A DNA stretch of 64,000 nucleotides from Thermodesulfobacteriota bacterium (GCA_965263275.1 OZ253668.1:1855329-1919328); one strand, 5' to 3'; counted from the stretch's first letter, positions 9,875 to 57,603 are shown. Translations and numbers: made by a program. The notes: a model not told the origin generated them from the letters alone.

Positions 9875-10246
9875 TTCGGATCGGGCACGATAGCCTATCA
9901 TTAAACACACATTGTAAAGTCTCCATCGAATTTTCCATCGTTTTGATTAAAAGGACCGGGGCTGAAGGGCTCGTGTTCCTAGCCAGCTGTGGTGACAGTA
10001 CCAGAGAAGGAAAGGTACCCGTTCTTATCTCTTGAGAGGAAAGGGATGGGATGAAGGCACTTATATGGTTCTGTCCGCGGGCAGTTGGCGGAGAAGATGT
10101 ATTCGGGCCGTGGCTGTGTTCCTGCACATAGTTAATCATGAAATCCCCCAGAGTGCCTTGACTCTGAGCCGGTTTTGAGTTTAAAATAGAAACGAACGGT
10201 TGGTTGTTACTTGCTGGTCATTACAAAACTGGAAGGTTCCGATCAA

Positions 10247-10256
10247 GGGGGGGGGG
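10247..10256 (+). repeat. G10 homopolymer in the 5' leader of the SRCR gene
   Basis: Ten consecutive G by hand count, ending 22 nt upstream of the ATG at 10279 and just upstream of the AAGGAGG RBS. Confidence 0.85.
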
Positions 10257-10278
10257 TATAACTGTTAAGGAGGTCGAA

Positions 10279-11169
10279 ATGAAAGGAATAAGAGGCGTTG
10301 GAAAAACGGTTTTGATTATGGTGACCTTTTTTCTTTTTAGTTCTTGGAATGCCTTGGCACAAGACATAGATAATACGGTAGAGACTGTGTGGTCGGCAAC
10401 TATGACGGTAGGCAGCTTTACCGCCCGTGACGGCACGGTTTACCTCGGATATGAATCCGGCATATTCCTAGGCGATCTCACCGACAACAATTTCTCTTAT
10501 GAAGGTGTTAATTACCGAGTTAAGGGAATCGTGAAGCTCGGGGATAAGATGAGGTTAGATTTCCTTAATAATGAAGTGGGTTTCAAAACAGCATGGAACA
10601 GCTACAACAAAACTTTTTATCTGAATATCGGGGATTCCGTGCAGCTTGATTTCAGGGACCGGACCATTCCTAGTGCTGACGAAGATGAAGACTATGGATT
10701 GCACGAGGATGAGGTGCGGCGTGAATGGATAGGCCAATCCTCTTATGACTGGGCTGATGGTCAGGAAATCATTGTAAGCATAACTACCAAATATCTTGAC
10801 GGTGCTCTTAAGTTGCCTTTGGATTTGTCTCTTCAGAGCGGTACTGTGACAGCCGGGACAATCGGACGATTAAAGATATTTGATGACACCGATGGTGACG
10901 GCACTGGGCGGTGGAAAAGAATATGCGATGACAATTGGGGAGATGCGGACGCGGTGGTTGCGTGCAGCCAGTTAGGCCTCTCTGGGGGCAGTGCGAGAAC
11001 CGGGAATCAGAGTTCACACCTGAGCATCAGTACCGCGGAAACCTTCTTGCTGGACCAAGTGGAATGCGTTGGTACGGAAGACAGGGTAATTGACTGTCCT
11101 CATGATGGCCGTGACGTGCACGATTGCGCTGCATGGGAAATTGCCGGGGTTGAATGTACTTCCCCTTAA
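10279..11169 (+). CDS. Secreted protein with a C-terminal SRCR (scavenger receptor cysteine-rich) domain
   Basis: RBS AAGGAGG precedes the ATG. Signal peptide MKGIRGVGKTVLIMVTFFLFSSWNALA. The C-terminal ~100 aa (GRLKIFDD...GRWKRICDDNWGDADAVVACSQLG...LLDQVECVGTEDRVIDCPHDG...HDC...IAGVEC) follows the SRCR consensus. Confidence 0.8.
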   Translation: MKGIRGVGKTVLIMVTFFLFSSWNALAQDIDNTVETVWSATMTVGSFTARDGTVYLGYESGIFLGDLTDNNFSYEGVNYRVKGIVKLGDKMRLDFLNNEVGFKTAWNSYNKTFYLNIGDSVQLDFRDRTIPSADEDEDYGLHEDEVRREWIGQSSYDWADGQEIIVSITTKYLDGALKLPLDLSLQSGTVTAGTIGRLKIFDDTDGDGTGRWKRICDDNWGDADAVVACSQLGLSGGSARTGNQSSHLSISTAETFLLDQVECVGTEDRVIDCPHDGRDVHDCAAWEIAGVECTSP

Positions 11170-12016: not shown

Positions 12017-12664
12017 GTGACGGTCACACCGCTGGTAAAAGTAAAAAGGCTTATGGATGAACTTAAAAACCTGAGTCAGCAGGATCTCCAAGCCTTAAAA
12101 GAAAAATACGAATATACCTCAAGAGTCTTTCCAGACTCCGAATCGCTACTCGCTTTAGCTGAGGTCTATCTCGCACTTAGACAGGTAACAAAGGCCAGAA
12201 AGACTGTTTCCGATTTCACCCTTAACAAAGGTGATAGCAGCCGTGCGAGGTTTGTTCTCGCAAAAGCTCATCTTATGTGCTGGAATGCCACCGAGGCCGA
12301 GGAGGAACTTAGAAAAGCTCTTGAGCTTGACCCCCGCGACTCCCGAGCTTCCAAACTCCTTACCTACATATACAGAAGCAATGGAAAGATAGGTGAAGCT
12401 TTCAGGATTTCCTTGTTCTCTAGTCCCGGTTCGCTGAGCCAGGGAGAAAAACTACGAAAGCCCAGAGAACCTTCCCCCGCAGTGGAAAAAAAGAGCAAAT
12501 CACGAGCCGGGATTTTCGAAACTGAGACCATGCTTAATCTTTACGTCTCCCAAGGACTTTACGAAGACGCTCTCAAGATAGCTGAAACTCTCTGCGAAAT
12601 TGAGCCTGATAATCCCGCTTACCACCGCCGTCGTGATGAGATAAAGATCCTTATTGGCCAATAG
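12017..12664 (+). CDS. TPR-repeat protein
   Basis: Helical-repeat sequence ([70 protein letters not shown]). Start is GTG 12017 or ATG 12053. Confidence 0.7.
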   Translation: MTVTPLVKVKRLMDELKNLSQQDLQALKEKYEYTSRVFPDSESLLALAEVYLALRQVTKARKTVSDFTLNKGDSSRARFVLAKAHLMCWNATEAEEELRKALELDPRDSRASKLLTYIYRSNGKIGEAFRISLFSSPGSLSQGEKLRKPREPSPAVEKKSKSRAGIFETETMLNLYVSQGLYEDALKIAETLCEIEPDNPAYHRRRDEIKILIGQ

Positions 12665-12780
12665 CGAGGAATTTGGTTTTTCCGGGCGTAAAATCAACCT
12701 GGTTCCCATAGGCTTTTTGCGGCAAAGAACACTTGGTTGAAGCTAACCCAAGTTTACCAAGAAAACTCGTGAGTGGGACA

Positions 12781-15415
12781 TCAGGTCCATTTCTCTTCTA
12801 GCCGGGTTCTCCGCGAAATCGCAATCAGGGAAAGCATAATTAAAAGCAGGTTAAGCAGGGTGTTTTCCGGCATATTCCCCGCTCCCATATCCACAGCAAT
12901 CGCGCATCCCCCCCCCGTCTGTGGTTGTCGGTTGTTGCGTCTCTAATGGTGGATGCGACTGTTCTGTCGGTTGTTGCGGTTCTGATGGTGGATGCGACTG
13001 TTCTGTCGGTTGTTGCGTCTCTGTCGGTGGCGGCGGTGGCGGTGGTGGTGGTGGCGGTGGTGGCGGCGGCGGTGGTGGCGGCGGTGGTGGTGGCGGCGGC
13101 GGCGGAGAAGAAACATCGCCGAAGACCCAGGGACGGGCCTGCTTGATCGCCAGGATATTCTCGCTGGTGATCTTGAACTCTATTTCCATGGCGAACGGTT
13201 CATCGGCCGCGGGGTTGTACAGCCCCGCGAAGTGGTCATGGATCACTGTGAGGTGATCGCGCAACTGTATCAGTTGCGCGTCACTCATCAGGAGTTGCCC
13301 TGGCTCCACCAGGTTGGAGGTGGTAAGTACCCTGTATGTTCCATCCTTGTTCAACAGGATTTCCTCTGGCACCGAGAGCGCGTCGGGATTGGTGACCAGA
13401 TCCTCGCCGAGCTGCGTGTTGACGTAGTACCAGTCGTCACTGCCGGAGGTCAGGTCGGTCGGGTCAAAGCTGACGGCCACCCCGTTGGCCAACTCGTCTT
13501 TGTAGTTGGGATGGACCAGCACCCCCATCGCCGCGGCCAGATGATCGATGCGATAAAACTCGCGCTCGGTGAAGGCCCGGAAGGTCCACAGGCTCGCAAA
13601 CACCCCCTTGAGGGACTTGTCGATGCCGTCCTCCACCGTCTCATCGGGATTCTGGGTCTTGGAGTCGTACAGGCCCGCCCCGTTAAAGCCCGGCAGGTCT
13701 TCGTTGTTCGTGCTTGATCGGTAGCGTAGTGATTGCCCCTCCGGATACGTGGCGTGCATGGTGGTCAGGGCGTCGATTATCCCCTGGGGCGAGTCCGCGT
13801 CCTCGATATCGTCGCGCAGATCGTCGAGCATGTCGTCCTGGACGTCGAAGTCCGTCTGGAAGTCTGGGTCAGCCAGCATGGTTTCAATGCGGGCATAGAA
13901 ATCGTGGGCCTTCATGAACTCGTCGTAGAAATAAAACGGGATCGCAAACCCGTCGGGAACCGTCCCCTCGGGAAAACCAAGTGTCCCCAGCACGGCCACA
14001 TTCGCTGCCTTGACGCCGAATGCGGTCCAGTCCTCAAAGCCGATCTCACTGAGGGGCGTGATCTCGGTGACGGAGAGATCCCGTTCCGGCGTTTGTTCTG
14101 TGGCGGGTCGGGAAGACTCGTAGTGCGCGTCGACTTCTGCAACCGTGGCGGCCCCTATTTCCCATCCGTTCTCTGTCACTTCATAGCGGACGTAACTGCC
14201 GATGAGGGGCGCGATGGCAGGGTCGTCGCGGATGTCCCGGATGTAGGCGTTGGGGATGCCGTTCTGCACGGCGCGCAGGTTGACGTGCGAGAGCGGGGTT
14301 TGGGGCACGGTCGAGATGATGCCGGCCACGCGGGGCAGTTCGTTGGGTAGGGCCTCGTAGAGCACGATGTCGCGCGGGTGGGGCCGGTCGTCCGGGTCCA
14401 GGACTTGCAGCCGCCCGACCCCTTCCCCCGGGTTCAACGCCAGGAAGTGGATGTTGGAGTAGACGTCCCCGTCGAACACGAGGTTGATGCGGGATTCCCG
14501 GTACAACGGCAAATCGGACTGGATATACGGAAGCTCATGGTTCCGCACATACAAGGCCAAGTTGTCTTCGAGCAGCGGCATGCTGGCGGCGAGCAGCGTA
14601 TGGGTACGCTCCATAAGGCTGAAGGAGAAAGAGTAGCGGGAGGGGAGTGTATTTAACGAGTAAAGGTAGACGCCTTGGCTGCCATCGGGGGCAACGCGGT
14701 TCTGCCTATAGGCGATCGTGCCGAGAATTACCCGCTGCCGGTTGATATGCCTGTCATCCAAGAAGGTTTGATGTGTAGGGTGCGTATTGGCGTTGATGAA
14801 ATAGACACGCGGTCGGTCGGTGTCCATGCCGAGCAGAGCGAACTTGAAGTATCCTCCTATGGCAAGCGCATCGTATGTGTGCGTATCGGGAACAGCCACA
14901 GCCCCGTCGTTCAGTGGAACGTCGGTGGCAGGGTTGACTGGGTTCATGGCCCCCAGATCATTGAGCTCGGTGATGTCGTCGACACAGTCGCCGTCAACGT
15001 CAGCGGGGTCGGCGATGAGGTACTTCTCCACCCGGTAGCGCTCCTTGGGCAGCGCATCCACGTTTTCGGCCAGCGTGGTCGTGCCGGCTTCACCGCGCTT
15101 GACCAGTACCGGAATATCCACGGTCGTGTCTGCGTCCACCTCATGACTCACGTAAAGCACGAAGTAGTCGGCGGTCGTGGAGTTGACCACGATGGGAACG
15201 GCATTAACCTCTACCGCCGTCGGCGTTGTGTTATAGCTGTTTCCTGAACACATCTCTGACTGCGGGTTGCCCTGCGCCTGTATCGGCATCGGGGTGGCCA
15301 GTAGCGTGGCGAGTGCCAGCAGCGCTCCCGGTGCCGCGCGGAAAATCAGGAAGCGGGCGAGGCTTGCAAGACGGGCGAAACGCCCCCGATAGGGCTGGTG
15401 GTACTTCCGACGCAT
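12781..15415 (-). CDS. Secreted PEP/pyruvate-binding (PPDK_N, ATP-grasp) domain protein, copy A, with polyproline stalk. The C-terminal sorting tail is out of frame because of a G9 tract
   Basis: Signal peptide ...LLATPMPIQA. PPDK_N motifs FGVKAANVAVLG..VPDGFAIP, LRYRSSTNNEDLPGFNGAGLYDS, MGVLVHPNY, NGVAVSFDP, EIEFKI...ILAIKQARPW. The ORF as given stops at 12851. With 8 G instead of 9 it reads ...DGGGCAIAVDMGAGNMPENTLLNLLLIMLSLIAISRRTRLEEKWT* and ends at 12781. Confidence 0.8.
12908..12916 (-). repeat. G9 (plus-strand C9) homopolymer inside the PPDK_N copy A coding region
   Basis: Nine C by hand count. It sits exactly between the PT-rich repeats and the anchor-coding tail. Confidence 0.85.
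12917..13105 (-). repeat. Coding repeats: ~2.7 copies of a 39-bp unit (13-aa QQPTEQSHPP[SL]E[TP]) plus an 81-nt (CCR)27 polyproline tract
   Basis: 39-bp units at 12946-12984 and 12985-13023, with a partial copy at 12917-12945. Uninterrupted CCA/CCG codons 13025-13105 (27 Pro by hand count). Confidence 0.85.
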
Positions 15416-15774: not shown

Positions 15775-15990
15775 CCTTACCCTCTCTGAAATTGAATCTT
15801 TTCTCTCCTCGAACACCGAGACCCTAGGCGATGATGTCCGGCTTTCTTTTTTTCAGTCAAATTCCGAAGGGGAAATAGTTACCGCAATACAGGATGCCTA
15901 CGGAAAGTTTGACGGAATAATCATAAACCCCGGCGCCTATACTCATACCAGCGTCGCCATAAGGGACGCCATACTCTCAACCGGAATGCC
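15775..15990 (+). pseudogene. aroQ 5' fragment created by the tandem duplication; lacks a start codon
   Basis: Matches aroQ 20937-21157 with substitutions and indels. About 100 bp including the ATG is deleted relative to 20832-20937. Confidence 0.8.
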
Positions 15991-16114
15991 TTACGTCTCC
16001 CAAGGACTTTACGAAGACGCTCTCAAGATAGCTGAAACTCTCTGCGAAATTGAGCCTGATAATCCCGCTTACCACCGCCGTCGTGATGAGATAAAGATCC
16101 TTATTGGCCAATAG
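15991..16114 (+). pseudogene. Duplicated 3' end of the TPR gene, fused in frame to the aroQ fragment
   Basis: Identical to 12541-12664. The junction reads ...ggaatgcc|ttacgtctcc, giving a chimeric [11 protein letters not shown]. Confidence 0.8.
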
Positions 16115-16230
16115 CGAGGAATTTGGTTTTTCCGGGCGTAAAATCAACCTGGTTCCCATAGGCTTTTTGCGGCAAAGAACACTTGGTTGAAGCTAACCCA
16201 AGTTTACCAAGAAAACTCGTGAGTGGGACA

Positions 16231-16365
16231 TCAGGTCCATTTCTCTTCTAGCCGGGTTCTCCGCGAAATCGCAATCAGGGAAAGCATAATTAAAAGCAGG
16301 TTAAGCAGGGTGTTTTCCGGCATATTCCCCGCTCCCATATCCACAGCAATCGCGCATCCCCCCCC
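16231..16365 (-). pseudogene. Orphan anchor-coding tail of PPDK_N copy B, severed by IS110
   Basis: Identical to 12781-12915. It ends in a C8 run that abuts the IS110 left end. In the G8 frame it encodes GCAIAVDMGAGNMPENTLLNLLLIMLSLIAISRRTR... Confidence 0.75.
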
Positions 16366-16590
16366 GATACCCTTTATCCAAGCTTAATTTAGCTAAAATT
16401 TAAGAATCAAGTTTAATAGAATTCACGGGCCACTCGATCGAGAGCTACCTGCCCCCCCTGCGCCTCTGAGCGCCTACTGGGGACTTGTGCCTCGGTCGAG
16501 TGCCGTGATGAATGATGTCCAGTAGGAAGTTCGTGCCTCTGAGCACCTCCGTATCGGAGCAGACACACACATCACGGCAAACCCGATTTA
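16366..16590 (+). ncRNA. Candidate IS110 bridge/seek RNA region (left non-coding end)
   Basis: ~225 nt upstream of the transposase with long-range complementary arms (cacgggccactcgatcgag / ctcggtcgagtgccgtg; cctactgg / ccagtagg) and duplicated gcctctgagc(g/a)cc motifs. One loop region carries a C7 run. Confidence 0.35.
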
Positions 16591-37350: not shown

Positions 37351-37838
37351 TGATACAGGAAAAACTCAGAGAACTTGGAGTGGAACTCGCAGAAGAAGTT
37401 CCCGCCTTGGGAAGCTACGTTCCAGCGACCGTGTCGGGCAATCTGATTTTCGTATCAGGTCAGCTTCCGGTTGAAAACGGAAAGCTTCTCTTCACGGGCA
37501 AAGTGGGGTCTGATCTTACGGTTGCGCAGGGTTACGAGGCCGCGAGACTGGCGGCGATAAACGGCCTTTCCGTAATCAGCCATACACTCGAAGATCTACG
37601 ACAGCTCAGCAGAATAGTGAAAGTTACGGGTTACGTGGCGAGCGCTCCCGGTTTTACGGAACAGCACAAGGTGGTTAACGGCGCCTCCGAGTTTTTCTCT
37701 GACATACTCTCAGAGAACGGACGCCACGCCAGGGTTGCAGTGGGGGTTTCCGGACTTCCGATGGACTCCCCGGTGGAAATTGAGATCATAGCCGAGTTCT
37801 CCCCCGCTGCCCCGAGAAGCTCGGATATTTCCTCCTGA
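37350..37838 (+). CDS. RidA/YjgF/L-PSP family protein
   Basis: 162 aa with an LFVSGQLP... pattern and a C-terminal VEIEIIAE. Start overlaps the htrA stop. Confidence 0.75.
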   Translation: MIQEKLRELGVELAEEVPALGSYVPATVSGNLIFVSGQLPVENGKLLFTGKVGSDLTVAQGYEAARLAAINGLSVISHTLEDLRQLSRIVKVTGYVASAPGFTEQHKVVNGASEFFSDILSENGRHARVAVGVSGLPMDSPVEIEIIAEFSPAAPRSSDISS

Positions 37839-38587
37839 TGTTCCCCGTATATCTTTATTCAGACAGTCCTTCGCAGTCGCTCGTTATAGAAGACGTAACG
37901 GATTTTCTCTCGAACCTGGGTCTTTCGGTGGAATTTCGCGGAGATTTCCTGAGTTATCTCTCGCTCGGCGCCGAGGAGAGAGCCGAGCTTGAATCACTCT
38001 TGGTTAAGGCTAGGGTTTTTGACATTGAGAGGCCCGTTGATTTTTTCCAACCGCACCTGTCGTCCGAGGCGTTTGAAAAGGAGCTCTATGACGGTTTCTG
38101 GGTTCAGAGAATATTCTCGAGGTTTTTTCTGAGAAAGCATCCCGGAGAACTAGCGAAAAACGGCTTTCACGCGGTTATTACGGGCAGGCTGCTTGGCACT
38201 TACGGCTCCCGAAGGTACCACGCTAGGACTGTCATCTCGGGGTTTCCGTCTTTCGTTTCAACGTCGGGACTTGTGGAAGGCCCGGCAAGACCTAGGGAAT
38301 ATTATTTTCTAAAGGCGGAATTTATCCGGTCGGGAAGGGACCCCTCAGAGCTTGACGATATGTTCCGGGGGAAATTCATTGATTACCAAGACGAGAGGAC
38401 AACTAAAGTAGTGAGCGCCTATGTACTTCAGCCTCTTCTGCATAATTTTTCGGGAAAGGAATTCTGCGCAAATGCCAAGTGCGCGCTTTTTAATTCACAT
38501 TGGCAAAGACAAGTTCTAGACATCCAGTACGTCGGTTTTGTGTGTGCCGAGTGCGGAGATGAAATCAGGAAAATGGTGGAGGGATAA
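37838..38587 (+). CDS. Hypothetical protein with an archaemetzincin-like Cys4 module but no HExxH
   Basis: C-terminus LQPLLHNFSGKEFCANAKCALFNSHWQRQVLDIQYVGFVCAECG resembles the M54 pattern HExxHxxGx3Cx4CxMx17CxxC, with Q-P in place of the H-E positions. Start overlaps the ridA stop. Confidence 0.45.
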   Translation: MFPVYLYSDSPSQSLVIEDVTDFLSNLGLSVEFRGDFLSYLSLGAEERAELESLLVKARVFDIERPVDFFQPHLSSEAFEKELYDGFWVQRIFSRFFLRKHPGELAKNGFHAVITGRLLGTYGSRRYHARTVISGFPSFVSTSGLVEGPARPREYYFLKAEFIRSGRDPSELDDMFRGKFIDYQDERTTKVVSAYVLQPLLHNFSGKEFCANAKCALFNSHWQRQVLDIQYVGFVCAECGDEIRKMVEG

Positions 38588-38877: not shown

Positions 38878-39915
38878 ATGGGAAAAACAATTTCAGGTAA
38901 CGAGAATTGCTTTGATAATATCGGTGTTCGAGCATGCGGAAAGAGGAAGAACCGAGCAATCTCTCTGCAGTGGTTAGATGCTTCCATCTTCAGTTGCGCG
39001 GGAATGTTGGCTGTCTTTTTCCTTGCGTTCTCACTCCTTAGCGTCGGCAATGTATGGGCGGGGGAAAGGGAATTTTTTCGAAAAAAGTTCCTTGTGAGCG
39101 AAACCACCAATGCAGAAGATTCGAACAACATACATACTGTGTATCAAGGAGGCCCTTTCACGAACGCTATATTTACCTATAATGGTGCCACCTACAGAGT
39201 TGAGCTTGTCGAGTCGGGGGATAGAGGAGTTAAGCTCAGGACGAACCCGAGCTTTCCGTCAACGCTGCAAGGGGCAAACAGAAGGGACTTTGATTTGCAT
39301 CTCGGTACTGAGGATGCTTCTGGCGATTATACCGAGAATGCCAGTTTTAATTTCAACAGGTGGAGCCAGTTATCTACAGTTCCGTCTTCTGCCAGCTACG
39401 ACACTCTATGGTCTGGGTCAGCCGGTTGGACACAGAGCGGAGAGAATGGCGTAATTCGTATAACCGGTCCGATTCTTAACAACGACCTTCAGTTCTCGCC
39501 TTACCTCCCGTTACCTACTAAGAATTCAGACGGGGTTGCAATTTCGGGTCGGCTTGAAATATTTGATGCTACGCAGGATACCGACGGCCAATGGAAGTGG
39601 ATATGCGACGATGGTTTTGGGGATGATGAGGCAAAGGTCGCATGCGGACAGCTGGGTCTTCCTGCAAGCGGAGCTACAACCATGGATCTGCCGGACGATT
39701 GGTTAGCAATTCCCGATAATCTTACTGGCTTCAAAGCTTTGCTTACTGCCGCAGCCATAACTTACTATTCAAGTGTTCCGGCTCTGCTCGATGACGTAGA
39801 TTGCGATGGTACGGAATCCCGGCTGATTAACTGTAACCATGCGGGGCGTGGAGCAACCGATTGCGATATATCGGAATCAGTTGCTGTCATCTGTCAGGAA
39901 GAAGCTTCCGAGTGA
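38878..39915 (+). CDS. Secreted/anchored protein with a C-terminal SRCR domain; paralog of 10279-11169
   Basis: GGAGG RBS; hydrophobic N-terminal segment. SRCR-like GRLEIFDATQDTDGQWKWICDDGFGDDEAKVACGQLG...LLDDVDCDGTESRLINCNHAG...DC...VAVIC. Shares the F[ST]Y.G..YRV motif with the first SRCR protein. Confidence 0.8.
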   Translation: MGKTISGNENCFDNIGVRACGKRKNRAISLQWLDASIFSCAGMLAVFFLAFSLLSVGNVWAGEREFFRKKFLVSETTNAEDSNNIHTVYQGGPFTNAIFTYNGATYRVELVESGDRGVKLRTNPSFPSTLQGANRRDFDLHLGTEDASGDYTENASFNFNRWSQLSTVPSSASYDTLWSGSAGWTQSGENGVIRITGPILNNDLQFSPYLPLPTKNSDGVAISGRLEIFDATQDTDGQWKWICDDGFGDDEAKVACGQLGLPASGATTMDLPDDWLAIPDNLTGFKALLTAAAITYYSSVPALLDDVDCDGTESRLINCNHAGRGATDCDISESVAVICQEEASE

Positions 39916-40099
39916 TAATTAATACCCGTGAGACGGCATTTGTCTGCAAGGCAGAGTTCCCAACGGACTATGCTGGGCGTCCACCACACGTTGTGGCAAC
40001 CTTGAGAGGCAGTTAAGAATATGGGCCCATTCCGATGCTTCAGGCCGCTGTGTCCAAGGAAGAGATAGCCGAGTTTCATAATTGATTTGCGGGGATTTG

Positions 40100-40815
40100 A
40101 TGAAAAACTTAAAGTTTTTGGTTCTTTTATTTTGCACAGCGGGGCTCTTTGGCGTTAATACAGCTTTCGCCCATACCCACAGGGATCCCGGTTTAACGGC
40201 AACGGTTAGAGATGCCAGTGCGAGTCTTGAAGATTTCGTAAAGCATGCGGCTTCGCATCTGTCAGAAGCCACAAGCTTTGAGGGAGTCTTGCAGTTGCTA
40301 AAGGAGTTCAGAAATGAGAACGGGGACTGGAACGATGGTTCCACCTACCTTATTTTGCTCACAAGGGGAGGCGGGGTGTACATTCATCCTAAGAGCAGGG
40401 AAGTAGAAGATCAGGATTGGTCTGAACTTCTTTCGGGATGTTCTCAAGGGAGCTGGCATGATCTTGTAACGGCCGGCGGAGGCTGTGTGGAAGGTCAGGG
40501 AGAAGGGAGTCGGGGTTATGCAGTTTCTTTTTCCGCTCCATATATTCCTTTTGCGAATTCAAGAAGCAAGGAAAAAGATTTTGTTCTGGTAGGAGGTCTT
40601 GATTATATGCCCAGGGCTGATACTCCTGCTTCCTTTAAAAAGATGGTGGATGATCTGGTTGACAGCTATGTCAGAAGGCTGATAGGCAGTGATGTGGATC
40701 TTGATGACCCGGCGATTTCACAGAGTCGCATGGAGTTCAGAGATAATTTCTTTGCTTTGGTGGTTCCCGAAATAGATTCCAGAGATGTCAGCGGAGAAGA
40801 GGATCTGAATGTAGC
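40100..40815 (+). pseudogene. Cache-like 'GDWNDG' surface protein, 5' part, interrupted by IS21
   Basis: Signal peptide MKNLKFLVLLFCTAGLFGVNTAFA, then a sCache-like module (...NGDWNDGSTYLILLTRGGGVYIHP...). The ORF then runs into the IS21 terminal repeat. Confidence 0.75.
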
Positions 40816-40978
40816 GCGACAAACAAGATGAGACTCTCGGCGTCGCGACGACAGAACGATACCGAGGTATTTTGGGGATTGCAAAAATATTTTTCCAATG
40901 ATGTTTCCGCCAAGGTGCGCGGGAAGGGCCGGCCCCGGATATCCGGGGCCGGACAACAGCCTGTTCGGGGGGTGGGGG

Positions 40979-41806
40979 TCAGCCGGATGTGTCGCTTTCG
41001 GTGGCGAACTTCGCGGGTCTTCCCTGTTTTTTCTTCTGTTCCATGGCTTGACGGCGTCTGTAGCTCTCCACGTTCATCTCAAGTATCACGCAGTGATGCA
41101 CAAGGCGATCCACCGCTGCCACCGCGGTGTTTTCGTCAGGAAACACCTTTGTCCATTCGGTAAACGGCTGATTGGCGGTAATGAGCACGGAACGTTGCTC
41201 ATAACGGACCGATATCAGTTCGAACAGCACGCTTGTTTCGGCGTGATCTTTGCGCACGTAGGCCAGATCGTCAAGAATCAGCAGGTCGTAGCGGTCAAGC
41301 CTGTTGAGCATGTTCTCAAGGGACAGTTCCCTTTGAGCCGTCTGGAGCTTCTGAACAAGATCCGTCGTACGGGTGAACAGCACCCGTTTCTCCTTCTCCA
41401 CCAGAGACAAGCCGATTGCCGAAGCCAGATGACTCTTGCCCGCCCCCGGAGGGCCGAAGATTATCACATTGTGTCCGCCTCTTAGCCACGAATCGTTTGA
41501 AGCCAGGGCCATGACCGTGGGTTTGGATATAGTGGGAACCGCGTCAAAGTCGAAGTTCTCAAGGGTTTTTCCTGGAAGAAGACGGGCTTCGCCCAAGTGG
41601 CGGCGTATCCTGCGCCGCTGCCGCTCGGCAAGTTCAAGATCCGCGAGAGTTGCGAGCAGCCGGGCCGCGGGCCACCCCTCGGTATCCGCCCGTTCGGCGA
41701 ACCGCTCCCACATCTGCCTGATCGCGGGCAGCCGAAGTTCGCGGAACATGAGGTCAAGGTCGGCTTTTCCGATCTCCACCACCTTTTCATTGGGTTTCGT
41801 ATTCAT
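40979..41806 (-). CDS. istB: IS21 helper ATPase IstB
   Basis: Walker A GPPGAGKSHLA, Walker B LLILDDL. Confidence 0.92.
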   Translation of the reverse strand: MNTKPNEKVVEIGKADLDLMFRELRLPAIRQMWERFAERADTEGWPAARLLATLADLELAERQRRRIRRHLGEARLLPGKTLENFDFDAVPTISKPTVMALASNDSWLRGGHNVIIFGPPGAGKSHLASAIGLSLVEKEKRVLFTRTTDLVQKLQTAQRELSLENMLNRLDRYDLLILDDLAYVRKDHAETSVLFELISVRYEQRSVLITANQPFTEWTKVFPDENTAVAAVDRLVHHCVILEMNVESYRRRQAMEQKKKQGRPAKFATESDTSG

Positions 41807-43305
41807 CTCTGTCCTCCCGTTTCAAATAAAGAGCCGTAATTGTCGAGGCGGCCTCTATGGACGTCGACTCCGGGCATAGGCCCCGTTTTCACCGTGAACC
41901 GTTCTTTGAGCTCATCGATGTCGGGAAGTTCTCCCACAGAAACGCATTTCCCTATCGCCGAAGCCAGCTGGGCTTCGCAACTGTAATCATGGGCCAGAGC
42001 CAGAAGCTTTACCGCGACTCCGCATGCCTCCCGCCCCGAGAGAAGTTCAACAGCAAGCTCAAAACAACGCTTGTACTCCTCCCGGGGAAACAGCTCATCA
42101 CGGTAAACCAGATTCATAAACGCCCCCGGCTTGCGCCGAAGCGAATGAATCACGTGATGATAATTGACCGCGTAAGCCGTTTTCTCCGAAGATCCTCTTC
42201 TCCTGCGCTCAAGGGTAAGCAGATGACGGTCTCCCAGGTACAACTCTACTCTCTCATCGTAAAGACGCGCCGCGAGACGATGCCCTATGAGACGAGAGGG
42301 GACCGTGTAGAACACTCCCTTGAGCATGAAACCGCCGGAAGAAGTAACCCTTACGCTTTCACGCCGATAAAACTCCCCGTCCTGGGGCGGAAGAGACCCA
42401 AGCACCTTGCGCTCGGTCTCTATGCGCTCCACGCGCCGGGCGTTTAGACCGCTTAGCAGTTCCGCTATGAAGTCGCGGTAAGAATCAAGATCTGCAAAGT
42501 CCCGGGAACCCCGAAGCGCCAAAGCGTCCCCTATCTCCCTTTTCAGGTGACCGTGAGAACTCTCTATCGCCCCGTTTTCGTGGGCGACCCCGCGGTTGTT
42601 GCGCGTCGGCGCCATCCCGTAATGGGCGCAAAACTCCCTGTAGCTTGCGGTCATGTCCTCGACCTCGTCCTTGCTGAGATTGCGGAGAGCCGCCGAGAGA
42701 CTGTCGGTGCGGCACTCCCGAGGAACGCCGCCCAGCATCCCCAAAGCTTCGCTGAGACCCCGGGAGAAAGCGGCGAAGCTCTCCCCTCCAAGCACTGCCG
42801 TGGCGTGAACGAACCCCGACCAGGGGAGCCGGAAGTGATAGAGCTTGTGATCAAATCTCTTTCGGGCAATCGTGATCTCAAGGGAGTTCATGGTGGTGAA
42901 GTCGGAGATCCCCACGCGCCCCGGTTCCTTTTTCTGACGGAATATCACATCCTTGTCAGCGCCATGTTCAGCCCTCCATGCCTTTATACGCCTCTCAAGA
43001 GTCCTGCGAACTCCCGGGTCAAGCTGGGGATTTTCTCTCATTATTTCGCGGAACACCGCGACGGAACGTATATCCGGACAGTTCTTGAGAATGGGAACTA
43101 CCCGGGAATCGAAAATGCCATCCAGAGGATCGGGACGTCGGCTCCCCCGGGGCTTGTTTTTAGTTCCTGATTGCGGGTCCTTGGAGATTCGGAAACCGGT
43201 AGAGCGGCTGAAACCCGCTTTGGCAGCCGCGGTTTCCGTAGAACAAGTTTGTTTGAGCTTCATGAATTTCCTCCTTTGCTCGTCAGTTATATGTTGACCT
43301 GCCAT
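41803..43305 (-). CDS. istA: IS21 transposase IstA
   Basis: HTH N-terminus (MAGQHITDEQRRKFMKLK...) and a DDE integrase core. 4-nt overlap with istB. ATG at 43305 preferred over 43443. Confidence 0.9.
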   Translation of the reverse strand: MAGQHITDEQRRKFMKLKQTCSTETAAAKAGFSRSTGFRISKDPQSGTKNKPRGSRRPDPLDGIFDSRVVPILKNCPDIRSVAVFREIMRENPQLDPGVRRTLERRIKAWRAEHGADKDVIFRQKKEPGRVGISDFTTMNSLEITIARKRFDHKLYHFRLPWSGFVHATAVLGGESFAAFSRGLSEALGMLGGVPRECRTDSLSAALRNLSKDEVEDMTASYREFCAHYGMAPTRNNRGVAHENGAIESSHGHLKREIGDALALRGSRDFADLDSYRDFIAELLSGLNARRVERIETERKVLGSLPPQDGEFYRRESVRVTSSGGFMLKGVFYTVPSRLIGHRLAARLYDERVELYLGDRHLLTLERRRRGSSEKTAYAVNYHHVIHSLRRKPGAFMNLVYRDELFPREEYKRCFELAVELLSGREACGVAVKLLALAHDYSCEAQLASAIGKCVSVGELPDIDELKERFTVKTGPMPGVDVHRGRLDNYGSLFETGGQR

Positions 43306-43487
43306 CGTGAACCTCCCGCTCAATAGATTGAGCGGGGTTCTTACCCGGCCGGTCGTGAACACCGAAAGAAATTCAAAAAAATCTGGAGAGATGCTGTCTG
43401 AAACGGAAGGAGGGCGTAGCCCGACTGGAGTTTCAGACAGCATCTCCCCAGAGTCTCATCTTGTTTGTCGCAAAAGTCCTAAGTTGA

Positions 43488-44105
43488 TTGTCGCTGTACA
43501 TGAAGCAGTTTTTAGAGAAAGCCTATTCGCTTATGACGGCATCCTTTTCTGTTGACCTGTTTGATCCTGTGATACTGCGCAGGGTTTTCAGGTTTGAAGG
43601 AGGACCCTGGAGGAATGACTCTACCTATATCTATATAATGGATGACAAGGGGAACACTATATTTAACGGTGCGAATAGAGACATTGAGCAGACGAATTTA
43701 CTGCATGATCATGGTCCTGAGATTGCGCGGATAGCTGTGGATATCAGAGCCGCGGCTATGACGAGGACGGAGGATGGAAATAGTTTCGTCGGAGGTTTTG
43801 TGAATTACAATTGGGATGATCCTGCTGTGATAGGAGACGAGGGTGATGGTCGTCCGGGAGGTTCTTCTCCAAAGCTTGCTTTTGTAAAAGCCTTTACAGT
43901 TGCGGTTGATAAGGACAAACCAGTGGATAATCCACGCATCTATATTTTTGGTTCAGGACTTTACTTGGGCGGTTTGCAGGGTGACGATGGAGACGGAGGG
44001 TGTGTGATTGCGGGGACGGAAAACAGTCTTGGAAGCACTGTAGTTAACCTGCTTCTGGTTGTATCCGGTATCTTTTTCGTTGCCTTTATTCGGCACAAGA
44101 GTTGA
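43488..44105 (+). pseudogene. Cache-like surface protein, 3' part (second Cache-like module plus the GGC sorting tail)
   Basis: ...GGPWRNDSTYIYIMDDKGNTIFNG... and C-terminus GDGGCVIAGTENSLGSTVVNLLLVVSGIFFVAFIRHKS*. No upstream start or signal peptide of its own. Confidence 0.7.
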
Positions 44106-53314: not shown

Positions 53315-53665
53315 GTGAGTTGGAAAGTCGATTTCGACCCGGCTTTTGACGCCGAATTTGAGAGCCTGTCCATTGCGGTGCAGGATGAGTTGCTTGCGCA
53401 TGCGAAACTTCTTGAGCAGTTTGGGCCCGAGCTGGGCCATCCTTGGGTAGACACTCTTAACGGATCGCGCCACGCCAACATGAAGGAGATTCGCTTCAAG
53501 TCCGAAAACGGCGTGTGGCGGGTCGCTTTCGCTTTTGATCCCCGACGCCGGGCCGTTCTGCTTGTTGCTGGCGACAAATAGGGCGGTAGCGAAAAGCGTT
53601 TTTACAGAGAGCTTATCAGGAAAGCGGATAAAAGGTTTGATGCGCATTTTGATCAGCTGAAGTAG
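53315..53665 (+). pseudogene. RelE/HigB-superfamily toxin interrupted by an in-frame TAG
   Basis: 88 codons (...RVAFAFDPRRRAVLLVAGDK), then TAG at 53579-53581. The same frame then continues GGSEKRFYRELIRKADKRFDAHFDQLK* to 53665. Confidence 0.6.
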
Positions 53666-53669
53666 TATC

Positions 53670-54020
53670 ATGGAGCAAGACAAGGAGATTATCATGACGA
53701 CCCTAACGGAGAGATTTGACCGGCTCCCCACGTCGCGCCGTAAGAAAGTAGAGCAGCGGGCTAGAGGGCTGATTGCCGAGGAGATGTCTCTTCGGGACCT
53801 GCGCAAGGCGCGGGAACGAACTCAGGCGCATGTGGCAAAGGAACTTGGTATCAATCAGGAGAATGTATCTCGTATCGAAAAACGAAGCGACCTGCTGATA
53901 TCTACTCTAAGCGGCTATATCGAAGCTATGGGCGGAAAGCTGAGTCTTGTGGTGGAGTTTCCTGACTGCCCGCCTGTGACACTTGCCGGTATTGCGGCTC
54001 TGGACAAAGAAGACAGTTAG
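53670..54020 (+). CDS. XRE-family HTH antitoxin (HigA-like)
   Basis: 116 aa with the HTH LRKARERTQAHVAKELGINQENVSRIEKR. Starts 4 nt after the toxin reading frame ends. Confidence 0.75.
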   Translation: MEQDKEIIMTTLTERFDRLPTSRRKKVEQRARGLIAEEMSLRDLRKARERTQAHVAKELGINQENVSRIEKRSDLLISTLSGYIEAMGGKLSLVVEFPDCPPVTLAGIAALDKEDS

Positions 54021-54519: not shown

Positions 54520-56088
54520 CTATACGCGCCTTCTCAAGAAGACAACCGAGAACAAAACGGATGTTATCAGGAACAGGTTAAGCAAAGTGCCTTGAGACGA
54601 CGTATTGCTGGTTCCGGCGATGGTGCATCCTCCGCCGCTAACAGCGTCTACTACCTCTTCCACTATGTCGTCCATGTCATCCATGTCGTCCATGTCATCC
54701 ATGTCGTCCATGTCATCCATGTCGTCCATGTCATCCATGTCGTCCATGTCATCCATGTCATCCATGTCATCCATCATGCCATCATCTTCCGGCGGATAAA
54801 CTCCGGAACCGAAGATGAAGGGCTGCGGAGGAAAATTAGCAGCAACAGCCATAAGAGTAACAAGAGGATTATCAGCTAGTCGAACAACTGTTTCTGCGAC
54901 CATTCCGTATAGGTCCGCCACCTCGATGTAGCTTGTCTTGGGTGACATGCCGGGAACCACTCTTTGTTCAAACCAGTCAGGAGGGTCTGGCGAGTCACCA
55001 GGCTTTAACCAGTGATATTTGACTGTAGCGGAATCTCCGATTTCTGGGCTTCCTCCTAATTCGTCGTTAAACAGTTTCGCTATGTTCTTTTCACCTTGCA
55101 GCTGATTATCATTCAAGTCAAGGTTAGCGCCGTTTAGATCAAAGTTGGTTCCGTTCACAAGCACTGTGGAATCTGCTGGATCCGCACTCATTACGAAAGC
55201 ATATATGCTTCCATACTTGAAATCCTCGCTTCCAAAACAAAAAAGCCGCTCTTGAATTTTTGTGGTTGTGATGCTATCAAGCATTTGATACTCAGCACCA
55301 GTTGGGTCGGCTAGACTAAGCAGATTGATTATGGTTGGCTTTGGGCCGAACATCTCGATCAATGCGTCCTCTGTTATATTTGCTACGTCTTTTTGAACCG
55401 CTTCTATAACACTTTTTACGTAAGCTTCAAGCTTCGTCTGGTCGCCCTCAACCTCCGCAGCGGTAGTGGTAAGATCAAGACCGGCACAGACAGGAGGATC
55501 AAAAGCGGAGTCGTTTGCATCGTGAACAAGACCTGCTATGTTCGTTACATCTACAGTATAGTCGCTCTCTACTTTAGTCGCGCAGGCTACACTGCCCTGG
55601 CCGTCGTAATCTTCTTCGCACTCCGTAGTCCCAATACCTGAACTTCTTGCTTTGTCGAGTAAAGCTTTTAAAGTAACCGCACCCTCCGAATTCGCGGCAT
55701 TCGGATTAAACTTGTGACCTATCAATCCGGGATGTCCCGCGTGATTCGTTACAAGGTTATTGTCGTTTATGCCTATTGCGTAGAAATTACCGTGCTTATA
55801 GTCTCCGCCATCTGTACTGTCTTGCCTGATATTCCTGGCGAATATTGTCAGCTCTCTGACTAGCTCGGCGCGATCCGCAACGGGATCGAATCGGTCCCTA
55901 ATCCCATTGTAGTACTCCACTATATGATTAACAAAGTCCTCCACGTCCTCTTTGACTTCAGGGTCGACCTCGTCCGCGGTTATGGTCTGACTGCCTCCGT
56001 GACTTGCGGACGCGTCAATGCTGAATGAAAAAACAAGCCCTAACGCAAAAAACAGGCTCAAAAGTATTCCGTGCATTTTAAATTTCAT
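54520..56088 (-). CDS. Double Cache-like surface protein with a (Met-Asp-Asp)12 linker and the GGC sorting tail (gene A; the only intact family member in the window)
   Basis: AGGAGG RBS; signal peptide MKFKMHGILLSLFFALGLVFSFSIDASA; two Cache-like modules. C-terminus ...GGGCTIAGTSNTSSQGTLLNLFLITSVLFSVVFLRRRV*. Confidence 0.8.
   Translation of the reverse strand: MKFKMHGILLSLFFALGLVFSFSIDASASHGGSQTITADEVDPEVKEDVEDFVNHIVEYYNGIRDRFDPVADRAELVRELTIFARNIRQDSTDGGDYKHGNFYAIGINDNNLVTNHAGHPGLIGHKFNPNAANSEGAVTLKALLDKARSSGIGTTECEEDYDGQGSVACATKVESDYTVDVTNIAGLVHDANDSAFDPPVCAGLDLTTTAAEVEGDQTKLEAYVKSVIEAVQKDVANITEDALIEMFGPKPTIINLLSLADPTGAEYQMLDSITTTKIQERLFCFGSEDFKYGSIYAFVMSADPADSTVLVNGTNFDLNGANLDLNDNQLQGEKNIAKLFNDELGGSPEIGDSATVKYHWLKPGDSPDPPDWFEQRVVPGMSPKTSYIEVADLYGMVAETVVRLADNPLVTLMAVAANFPPQPFIFGSGVYPPEDDGMMDDMDDMDDMDDMDDMDDMDDMDDMDDMDDMDDMDDIVEEVVDAVSGGGCTIAGTSNTSSQGTLLNLFLITSVLFSVVFLRRRV
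54667..54774 (-). repeat. 12 tandem copies of a 9-bp coding unit (ATG GAY GAC = Met-Asp-Asp)
   Basis: Alternating gtcgtccat / gtcatccat units on the plus strand, by hand count. Confidence 0.9.
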
Positions 56089-56245
56089 CCTGAAAATTCC
56101 TCCTGCAACTTTTTTTACTGCCATGATATCCATCATGGAGCAGAACTAACAATTCTAATTCACATTCTATTACAGGGAAATTCGGATTACAAGAAGAAAA
56201 ACAGGTTCCGGCGCGATATCCGCTTCGATGGCCATGCCGCGGAAA

Positions 56246-56345
56246 ATGAAAAAATCTATGTGGCAAATCCCTCGGGGGTTCCCGGAGGGGGCCGGGATTT
56301 TCACTACGGGCGGCTACTGCCTCCAGGTGTCTGGTTCCCGAGGTC
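56246..56345 (+). pseudogene. Fragment of the nucleoside 2-deoxyribosyltransferase 5' end (duplicate of 57685-57785)
   Basis: atgaaaaaatct... here against atgaaaaaaatct... in the intact gene. Out of frame it reads EKIYVANPSGVPGGGRDFHYGRLLP, matching KKIYLASPLGFSEACRDFYYERLLP. The upstream 70 nt is also homologous to 57620-57684. Confidence 0.7.
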
Positions 56346-56449
56346 AACAAGAGGGTCGCGCTTTGTTGTTTCCCAAATCAGGCAAACAGCGCTTTTGTTG
56401 ATTCTTTTACTTTCTTGCTCTGATGAGGATGAGGTGCGTTCAAATATCG

Positions 56450-56493
56450 AAAAAAGCAAGGATGGTCTTAACCGAGTTAAGACCATCCTTGCT
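56450..56493 (-). terminator. Rho-independent terminator of the Cache-like gene B
   Basis: 18-bp perfect stem agcaaggatggtcttaac/gttaagaccatccttgct, followed on the minus strand by T6. Confidence 0.7.
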
Positions 56494-56547
56494 TAATCAG
56501 CCGTTACTGGCAGTTTCGCGAAAACTGCCAGTACTGTAAAAAACTTT

Positions 56548-57603
56548 CTATGCGCGTCTTCTCAAAAAGACAACTGAGAACAGAACAGACGCTATCAGGA
56601 ACAAGTTGAGCAGAGTGCTCTGAGACGTATGTCCCGTCCCTGCGATGGCGCACGCTCCGTCGTCACCGTCTCCTGCCATCATGTCATCCATGTCGTCCAT
56701 GTCATCCATGTCATCCATCATGTCTGGAGGATAAATTCCGGAACCGAATATATAGAAAGCTGGATCGCCAAGTCCAGACGTATTTGTATTCTTTACCTCA
56801 ACATAGCTTGTCTTGGGCGACATGCCGGGGACCACGCTTCGTTCAAACCAGTCAGAAGGCTCCGGTTGGTCACCAGGTATCAACCAGTGATAGTCGACAA
56901 AACCTCCCTGCCCGTCCGTCAGTTGTCCGTTAACAGTTACCGCGTCGCGAATCAGCTTCGCTATATCTTGTTTATCAGCTGGATTCATCGGATCTGTTAG
57001 TCGGAAATTCAGGCCGTTCAGGTCGGAGCTTTGCCCGTTTAGAAACACGGTGGCATCTTCATCTGCGGACATGATAAAAGCGTATATGGAACCATCCTTG
57101 AAAGGTGCCATACTAAAACAAGCGGCTTCTTCTAGGGACCTTTGACCTACGAACCTACCAAATTCGGCCCGCATAGTGGGGTCAAGAGGATTTATCCCTT
57201 TCATAAAGGCTTCTGTCCCTATCCTCGTTAGTAGATCTACGGATGTCTCAATAATATCCTTTACATACTGTTTAAGATTGTCTTTGTCTTGGCTTGCATT
57301 GACGTCCACGGCTGTAACGGTCAAGGGCACTAAATTGGAACAGTCGGGAGGTAGTGCATCGCTTGGCGCGTGATTATAACCTACTATTGAGGTCACCGTT
57401 CCGCCGGCGGTGTCCCCTTTAATTGCGCATGCCCACTTGCTGCCGTTATATTGTTCGCAGTATGGAGCGGTGGTGGCGTTATCGAATAAGTTTTTTATAG
57501 TTCCGGGCGAAGAAAGATCAAATCTGTGACCATACAAATTAGTATGTAGCCCGTGATTTTTTACTGGACTGACATAGTAGTGTAAAATCAGCCCTTCATA
57601 CAT
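56548..57603 (-). pseudogene. Cache-like surface protein gene B, 5'-truncated: no signal peptide, no RBS and most of module 1 missing
   Basis: Colinear with gene A from inside module 1 (YEGLILHYYVSPVKNHGLHTNLYGHRFD ~ GNFYAIGINDNNLVTNHAGHPGLIGHKFN). C-terminus (MDD)4...DDGACAIAGTGHTSQSTLLNLFLIASVLFSVVFLRRRA*. Confidence 0.65.
56683..56718 (-). repeat. 4 tandem copies of the same 9-bp Met-Asp-Asp unit
   Basis: gtcatccat / gtcgtccat units by hand count. Confidence 0.9.

Follow-up and report, generated by a model that had tools for sequence, protein, structure and literature searches.

A conserved cysteine-containing C-terminal tail as a likely lineage-specific sorting or anchoring domain of sponge-associated Candidatus Dadabacteria

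Why should genes for different exported proteins end in the same short peptide? The question is raised by a 64,000-nucleotide stretch of a Thermodesulfobacteriota bacterium (GCA_965263275.1 OZ253668.1:1855329-1919328; the window, by which we mean the whole of this stretch), in which an earlier reading of the DNA, here called the original prediction, had noted four genes and an additional orphan copy sharing a C-terminal tail built from a Gly-Gly-Cys motif, a hydrophobic helix and a cluster of basic residues. C-terminal sorting signals define the surface proteins of a bacterium, and behind each newly recognized one a new sorting enzyme has come to light: sortase, exosortase, archaeosortase, rhombosortase and, most recently, myxosortase. 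We think it likely that the tail described here is a lineage-specific, cysteine-containing, tripartite C-terminal sorting or anchoring domain of sponge-associated Candidatus Dadabacteria; that it is a dedicated sorting or anchoring module at all we hold with greater confidence still.

Translations of the open reading frames (ORFs) and a six-frame regular-expression search recover all five copies, designated (a) to (e), exactly where the four tails and the extra copy had been reported (Table 1), and the same six-frame search finds no further copy anywhere in the window. A degenerate DNA pattern matching the tail has two matches in the window, with 0.00 expected from shuffled sequences. A profile of 40 positions, built from 13 tails and searched exhaustively against 1.84 billion representative proteins, identifies 128 protein clusters at E <= 1e-3, of which 54 also reach E <= 1e-10. 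It is thus scarcely credible that the copies reflect chance, or recent DNA duplication or gene conversion without function: copies (d) and (e) are indeed identical because of a recent tandem duplication, but the tail is also kept across 25 assemblies, and a comparison of the last 24 codons of (a) and (b) reveals eight synonymous and only three non-synonymous codon differences, an excess that indicates selection on the tail peptide.

The position and composition of the tail are strikingly constant. Of 137 proteins, 126 have the match no more than 20 residues from their end; the others are tandem fusions or have longer C-terminal extensions following the tail. The consensus reads [DG][DG]-G-C-A-I-A-G, about ten polar residues, [LF]-N-L-[FL]-L-x-x-S-[VA]-L-F-x(4), and two to three R or K, and this tripartite anatomy of motif, hydrophobic helix and basic cluster is apparent both in the column profile of 132 tails (from proteins no more than 50% identical overall), where the helix is followed by arginine or lysine, and in the AlphaFold2 (AF2) model of gene (a), in which the helix spans residues 516-537. 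The cysteine, taken as column 0, is present in 132/132 tails and is the single cysteine with rare exceptions; it is preceded by glycine at column -1 (116/132) and followed by alanine at +1 (102/132), isoleucine at +2 (118/132), alanine at +3 (109/132) and glycine at +4 (100/132). Within the helix there are fixed polar positions, an asparagine at +15 (118/132) and a serine at +21 (108/132), as well as leucines at +16 (129/132), +18 (126/132) and +23 (117/132).

The proteins that carry the tail fall into five passenger clusters. A Cache-like family accounts for 93 of 115 carriers (81%), 14 have leucine-rich repeats (LRR) or Calx-beta/PKD domains, six belong to a family of unknown fold, and the remainder comprise PPDK_N proteins and one Ig-like protein. 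By a simple test, 72 of 80 full-length carriers have an N-terminal signal peptide, and three more have mis-called starts with truncated n-regions. Pfam matches Cache or PPDK_N regions among the window genes, but the tail region is never matched in either the window genes or their relatives. Within the Cache-like family the mean identity is 55% in the tail versus 31% in the passenger, the tail being the more similar part in 1738 of 1758 pairs, and even where the passengers are unrelated, tail identity is 40-45%; taken with the synonymous excess between (a) and (b), these sequence comparisons show that the tail is under selection of its own.

To learn how widely the tail is distributed, we searched 185,579 genomes, each representing one species, with a DNA pattern of fixed spacing; of the 68 loci recovered, 61 have a true tail as judged by the profile. 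All 61 are in metagenome-assembled genomes (MAGs) of Candidatus Dadabacteria or Thermodesulfobacteriota (NCBI taxonomy treats Dadabacteria as a class within Thermodesulfobacteriota), with the exception of a contig whose bin is labelled Spirochaetia; the seven remaining loci lie in other phyla and have no tail, and about seven chance matches were estimated from the information content of the pattern. Tail-bearing genes beyond the window, which the original prediction had proposed to look for, are therefore numerous, with up to 12 tails on a chromosome of 1.5-2.4 Mb in 25 assemblies, as counted within the fetched 8-kb stretches. A scan of JGI metagenomes with the +16 spacing yields one true tail among 28 matches. 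The extreme C-terminal position, the tripartite anatomy with an invariant cysteine, the signal peptides, the unrelated passengers and the occurrence in one lineage all agree with the earlier placement of the tail in the class of dedicated sorting signals.

The PPDK_N passenger provides a further clue, since it is shared with organisms outside this lineage. It has 3057 homologues at E <= 1e-10, the best 120 of which are 65-97% identical and reside on contigs differing widely in size, including one under the name Candidatus Poriferisodalis; in many of these 120 the C-terminal region varies, with modules of the fn3, cadherin, PKD, Calx-beta or dockerin-like type. The tail is present on only four of the best 120, one of which is confirmed on a Dadabacteria chromosome, and thus it tracks the lineage and not the passenger, as a sorting signal should if it is adapted to an enzyme of that lineage. 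The distribution of the passenger itself suggests a secreted symbiosis factor that has spread horizontally. We note that the secretion of an ATP-grasp-type domain is odd in itself.

Is the tail then a known signal? No NCBIfam model scores above its threshold on the tails of the window, as the original prediction had anticipated in finding the IAG and TLLNL elements unfamiliar: the sole match is to JDVT-CTERM (NF033191), at 7.9 and 6.8 bits, below the cut-off of 27 bits, and MYXO-CTERM (TIGR03901.2, cut-off 20 bits) gives no match at E <= 10. In a scan of 90 diverse tails, weak matches are likewise most often to JDVT-CTERM (20/90, best E 1e-3, with 14.3 bits in an inspected relative) and MYXO-CTERM (14/90, best E 6e-4, which may be near the cut-off); in ten individually inspected tails MYXO-CTERM reaches 15.1 and 14.9 bits, with a span covering positions 1-33 of the 34-position model. 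GlyGly-CTERM matches none of the 90 at E <= 10, PEP-CTERM (TIGR02595) matches one at E 0.06, and Synerg-CTERM (TIGR04564) one at E = 9. The Gly-Cys pair had been likened to both MYXO-CTERM and Synergist-CTERM; the first likeness has weak matches among these 90 tails behind it, and the second is negligible.

The resemblance to MYXO-CTERM (MrtX/MrtC/MrtP) extends to several features, including the extreme C-terminal location, about 35 residues from cysteine to end, a Gly-Cys motif followed by a helix and an arginine cluster, the invariance of the cysteine, and the presence of many clients per genome among secreted surface or adhesion proteins; the MYXO-CTERM enzyme is also encoded away from its clients, and here none is adjacent in the neighbourhoods screened. 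However, MYXO-CTERM often has GCGC where this tail has a single cysteine followed by a fixed A-I-A-G, its helix is without charged or proline residues and without fixed polar positions whereas the helix here has the fixed Asn-Leu and Ser, and its hosts are Myxococcota and Bradymonadales. In the helix of the present tails, proline is among the three commonest residues at only one position of the distal half (10/132). JDVT-CTERM (NF033191, MrtJ), the commonest weak match, has a DP motif nine residues after the cysteine, whereas the tail has no DP but an N-L at +15/+16, and it occurs about once per genome with an adjacent CPBP gene, in contrast to ten or more tails per genome here with no CPBP gene beside them. 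Synerg-CTERM and CGP-CTERM are similarly cysteine-containing, tripartite, C-terminal and each lineage-restricted, but both are shorter than this tail; the former has an invariant helix proline, and the latter is distinguished by its CGP motif. GlyGly-CTERM (rhombosortase) and PEP-CTERM (exosortase) share the arrangement of motif, helix and basic cluster and the matching of many clients to one enzyme, but neither depends on a cysteine, and the tail has no PEP motif.

These comparisons raise the possibility that the tail is a diverged MYXO-CTERM or JDVT-CTERM that falls below the thresholds of the hidden Markov models and is processed by a myxosortase orthologous to MrtX, MrtC, MrtP or MrtJ, in which case the only novelty would be a gap in model sensitivity. 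The parent phylum Thermodesulfobacteriota, like Myxococcota, was formerly classed in Deltaproteobacteria, and the weak matches to both models would be explained, those to MYXO-CTERM extending over nearly the whole model at 15 bits against the required 20. Lineage-specific forms of such signals do diverge and need custom models (Haft, bioRxiv 10.1101/2023.06.07.544157). Nonetheless, we consider this rather unlikely, given that no tail of the window matches MYXO-CTERM at E <= 10, and given the single cysteine, the fixed AIAG and helix residues, the want of a DP motif, and the many copies per genome with no adjacent CPBP gene.

As to the processing enzyme, four invariant-cysteine tripartite signals (MYXO-, JDVT-, Synerg- and CGP-CTERM) pair with intramembrane proteases of the CPBP/Rce1 type (bioRxiv 10.1101/2023.06.07.544157), the enzymes for JDVT-CTERM and MYXO-CTERM being CPBP myxosortases (bioRxiv 10.1101/2023.06.07.544157; PMC11980579); MrtX cleaves MYXO-CTERM in a cysteine-dependent manner (PMC11980579), and conserved residues inside a helix point to an intramembrane enzyme (Haft, bioRxiv 10.1101/2023.06.07.544157). 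By analogy, the tail is probably processed by an intramembrane protease, and we tentatively favor one of the CPBP type, with a confidence that falls a little short of even. Screens with Pfam on selected ORFs (mainly those with multiple transmembrane segments) and with a regular expression for the CPBP motif (EExxxR...FxxxH...HxxxN/D) on all ORFs covered the window, 61 tail neighbourhoods of 8 kb and six annotated neighbourhoods of 20 kb. Among the candidate ORFs near tails Pfam recognizes only MraY, MurJ, Lgt, TrkH, H+-PPase, SulP, ABC-3, MFS and AmiS proteins, and the earlier statement that the window holds no candidate sorting enzyme stands. Two window genes were considered and set aside: a DUF6775 'probable metallopeptidase', which is not a membrane protein and occupies the same place in relatives that have no tail gene nearby, and Lgt, considered as a cysteine-lipidating enzyme, which is a universal housekeeping gene with no specific evidence in its favor. 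The absence of an enzyme from the neighbourhoods fits a housekeeping function, because an enzyme with many clients is not expected to be encoded beside them (Haft, bioRxiv 10.1101/2023.06.07.544157). The enzyme could instead be rhomboid-type (rhombosortase-like), exosortase- or archaeosortase-like, or an entirely new intramembrane enzyme; the Gly-Gly and other small residues around the cysteine do recall GlyGly-CTERM and rhomboid substrates on a reading of the sequence. A different class seems distinctly unlikely, however, when set against the near absence of GlyGly-CTERM and PEP-CTERM matches among the 90 tails and the association of all four known invariant-cysteine tripartite signals with CPBP enzymes.

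Several observations weigh against a dedicated sorting signal. Paralogues of a single family, never found without the tail, make up 81% of the carriers, and much of the recurrence must therefore reflect shared descent; we find no Cache-like homologues with other sorting signals, the family being lineage-specific and always bearing this one. No CPBP-, exosortase- or rhombosortase-like ORF was found in the window or the neighbourhoods, the latter two classes having been screened only indirectly. The helix has a fixed polar asparagine and serine, unlike that of MYXO-CTERM, and both cleavage and modification of the cysteine are argued from analogy with MYXO-CTERM and MrtX. Moreover, four of the five copies in the window are on damaged genes, either truncated, split by an IS21 or IS110 insertion sequence (IS), or out of frame, and selection on those copies is relaxed, at least in this strain. 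One alternative is a plain, uncleaved C-terminal membrane anchor with type I topology and no dedicated sorting enzyme, GGCAIAG and NL being conserved for some other purpose, such as disulfide formation, oligomerization in the membrane or helix packing. A helix and basic cluster suffice for stop-transfer anchoring, and both the lack of an enzyme in the regions screened and the dominance of a single, always-tailed family are as such an anchor would predict. On the other hand, the cysteine is present in 132/132 tails, the tail is 40-45% identical across unrelated passengers, the PPDK_N proteins of other lineages are without it, and the commonest likenesses in the databases are to cleaved sorting signals; moreover, anchoring alone calls for no conserved motif on the extracytoplasmic side. 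We therefore regard a plain anchor as unlikely.

On the preferred interpretation, that of a dedicated sorting or anchoring module, a carrier with the observed N-terminal signal peptide would be exported through Sec, and the tail helix would stop transfer and hold the protein in the inner membrane. By the positive-inside rule the Arg/Lys cluster would be cytoplasmic, with GGCAIAG about 12 residues outside the membrane. A housekeeping intramembrane enzyme could then recognize both the cysteine motif and the helix, in which Asn-Leu and Ser are fixed, a step that we model on MYXO-CTERM and the myxosortase MrtX, a CPBP/Rce1-type glutamic protease; by the same analogy the cysteine would be modified, probably by lipidation, the helix cut off, and the passenger retained on the cell surface. 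The clients are of ligand-binding or adhesion type (Cache-like, LRR, Calx-beta/PKD and PEP/pyruvate-binding), which fits a surface for interaction with a host.

The individual genes of the window are more damaged and less diverse than was first apparent. All five tails are present, but only (a) ends a gene that is intact from its signal peptide through passenger and linker to the tail; (b) is on a truncated gene, (c) on a 3' half, and (d) is out of frame. The passengers had been described as very different, and this is so for PPDK_N and Cache-like proteins, but three of the four carriers in the window, (a), (b) and (c), are paralogous members of a single Cache-like family. The low-complexity linkers, (MDD)12, (MDD)4 and poly-Pro, are as originally described (Table 1). 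In tblastn alignments gene (b) begins to match full-length homologues only at about residue 113, such that some 110 N-terminal residues and the signal peptide are absent, and it is probably a 5'-truncated remnant. Gene (c) is separated into 5' and 3' halves by the IS21-family element. The passengers score 15.8 (gene (a), weak), 23.0 and 27.2 bits with Pfam dCache_2, for which the gathering score is 26.5 bits. The AF2 model of gene (a) (mean predicted local distance difference test, pLDDT, 80; predicted template modelling score, pTM, 0.74) has two alpha/beta modules with long helices before each and a disordered, low-confidence linker at residues 483-519, and its best Foldseek matches, although weak (E 6.5e-3, target TM-score 0.57), are to sCache/dCache chemoreceptor ligand-binding domains. 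The label 'Cache-like' for this predicted structure is reasonable but not proven.

Table 1. Features of the window and of related contigs (positions are those of the window unless a contig is named)
Feature	Position	Strand	Description
Tail (a)	54520..54639	-	SGGGCTIAGTSNTSSQGTLLNLFLITSVLFSVVFLRRRV + stop; tail profile 66.6 bits
Tail (b)	56548..56667	-	DDGACAIAGTGHTSQSTLLNLFLIASVLFSVVFLRRRA + stop; tail profile 82.7 bits
Tail (c)	~43989-44105	+	GDGGCVIAGTENSLGSTVVNLLLVVSGIFFVAFIRHKS + stop; found by DNA pattern and tail profile
Tail (d)	12781..12915	-	GGGCAIAVDMGAGNMPENTLLNLLLIMLSLIAISRRTRLEEKWT + stop; adjacent frame to PPDK_N gene 1; tail profile 56.3 bits
Tail (e)	16231..16365	-	Identical to (d), GGGCAIAVDMGAGNMPENTLLNLLLIMLSLIAISRRTRLEEKWT + stop; G8 run 16358-16365; cut from its gene by the IS
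Gene (a)	54520..56136	-	538 aa; signal peptide MKFKMHGILLSLFFALGLVFSFSIDASA/SH; double Cache/PAS-like passenger, (MDD)12 linker, tail
(MDD)12 linker of (a)	54665..54774	-	9-bp tandem repeat, 12.2 copies
Gene (b)	56548..57603	-	351 aa; in-frame tail; Cache-like paralogue
(MDD)4 linker of (b)	56680-56718		4.3 repeat copies
Gene (c), 5' half	40082..40831	+	Signal peptide MKNLKFLVLLFCTAGLFGVNTAFA; aligns to residues 1-186 of homologue P0065
Gene (c), 3' half	43488..44105	+	205 aa, with tail GDGGCVIAGTENSLGSTVVNLLLVVSGIFFVAFIRHKS; aligns to residues 214-401 of P0065
IS21-family element	40979..43443	-	istB 40979..41806, istA-like 41803..43443; IstB_IS21 E 2.4e-62, Mu-transpos_C_2
PPDK_N gene 1	12851..15415	-	854 aa as read; signal peptide, PEP/pyruvate-binding domain, poly-Pro/TEQ linker, frameshift before tail
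Poly-Pro tract, PPDK_N gene 1	13025-13105		
G9 homopolymer	12908..12916	-	Passenger/tail junction of gene 1; G8 or G11 would place tail in frame
PPDK_N gene 2	17938..20496	-	852 aa; end reads into IS: ...TTTDGGLPTFHQVLNLYI + stop
IS110-family element	16366..17977	+	Transposase 16591..17874; DEDD_Tnp_IS110, Transposase_20; junction sequences
Poly-G, sister contig	L003, about 9965		G7
Poly-G, sister contig	L003, about 16085		G12
Tandem duplication	12541-12996 and 15781-16364		PPDK_N gene end, tail, 3' end of TPR gene
TPR gene	12017..12664		
TPR gene fragment	15986..16114		
Fused Cache-like ORF	L005 4587-7250		
Fused Cache-like ORFs	L008 3-1886 and 2084-4753		
Fused Cache-like ORF	L023 922-3618		
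Fused Cache-like ORF	L026 2955-5684		
Fused Cache-like ORF	L028 4360-7077		
Fused Cache-like ORF	L030 4557-7298		
Fused Cache-like ORF	L071 42-2669		
Linker frameshifts	L001 9700-10160		(MPE)n/(MDD)n repeats
Linker frameshifts	L002 9700-10200		(MPE)n/(MDD)n repeats
Lgt	24049..24804		
DUF6775 protein	37838..38587		'Probable metallopeptidase'
Toxin-antitoxin pair	53315-53581 and 53670-54020		Gp49/HigB-like toxin, HTH (HigA-like) antitoxin
SRCR-domain protein	10204-11169		No tail
SRCR-domain protein	38878-39915		No tail
IS256-type element	63162-63902		Transposase_mut

The two remaining copies belong to PPDK_N genes and differ from the earlier description in two respects. Tail (d), quoted as ending in RRTR, is slightly longer and ends in RRTRLEEKWT, and copy (e) is not an orphan but the tail of the second PPDK_N gene, from which it has been separated by an IS110 element lying exactly in the poly-G tract of that gene; in a sister contig of 1.66 Mb (L003, 95-99% identical) PPDK_N gene 2 is uninterrupted. 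Tail (d) had been recognized only after correction of a homopolymer, and this correction is justified, since the tail is in frame behind this passenger in other Dadabacteria (P0222, P0249, P0275, P0286). A tandem duplication encompasses the end of the PPDK_N gene, the tail and the 3' end of a TPR gene.

The poly-G tract that precedes the tail cysteine merits comment. Four copies, two in the window and two in the sister contig, have four different lengths, and all three that are uninterrupted are out of frame, while G runs do not exceed 5 in 89 other tails examined. A related closed Dadabacteria chromosome encodes the same glycine tract in mixed codons and in frame, GGGGGCGGCGGCGGAGGTGGAGGATGC. 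From the sequence, the tract looks like a site of slipped-strand phase variation through which the protein would alternate between an anchored and a released state; alternatively, the variation in length may reflect gene decay or homopolymer assembly error.

A different arrangement occurs in several Dadabacteria chromosomes, in which tail-to-signal-peptide fusions join two Cache-like paralogues in one ORF of about 870-910 aa with no stop codon between them (Table 1). The helix and basic cluster of the first tail directly precede the signal peptide of the second paralogue, a topology consistent with a polyprotein separated by processing; for the two to be released as separate mature proteins, both the tail and the signal peptide would have to be processed.

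It is tempting to combine these features into a single system: Dadabacteria would have their own surface display ('Dada-CTERM'), with an enzyme non-orthologous to the described sortase-like families, for host-facing ligand-binding and adhesion proteins of sponge symbionts; in the lineage of the window a hypermutable poly-G tract exactly at the junction of passenger and signal would toggle horizontally shared PEP/pyruvate-binding proteins between anchored and released states, and the fused paralogues would be polyproteins cut by the same machinery. As a whole this combination is doubtful. Taken more narrowly, as a sorting module, the tail picks out the proteins that an uncultivated lineage of sponge-associated bacteria probably displays on its surface. 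There are at least 10-12 such clients in a genome of 1.5-2.4 Mb, among them LRR and Calx-beta proteins of eukaryote-like character and a PEP/pyruvate-binding protein common to many sponge symbionts. A model based on the tail would allow annotation to name these 'hypothetical proteins' and would enable phylogenetic profiling to find the partner enzyme; should the partner prove to be a CPBP protease, invariant-cysteine signals would be tied to the CPBP family for the fifth time independently. We found no paper describing this tail or combining Dadabacteria with a CTERM or sorting signal.

Other features of the region are of note. The window contains insertion sequences of three types (IS110, IS21 and an IS256-type Transposase_mut), the first two of which disrupt tail-bearing genes, and together with the 5'-truncated gene (b) these insertions suggest that surface-protein genes continue to erode in this strain. 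Syntenic tail genes in two related chromosomes (L001 and L002) have frameshifts in the (MPE)n/(MDD)n linker repeats that detach the tail, and these may be real pseudogenes or assembly errors; an aldehyde dehydrogenase is also split in the assembly of L001. Directly downstream of gene (a) is a Gp49/HigB-like toxin paired with a helix-turn-helix (HTH) antitoxin. The window also encodes two proteins with scavenger-receptor cysteine-rich (SRCR) domains, both without the tail; this domain is mostly eukaryotic and is typical of the 'eukaryote-like proteins' of sponge symbionts.

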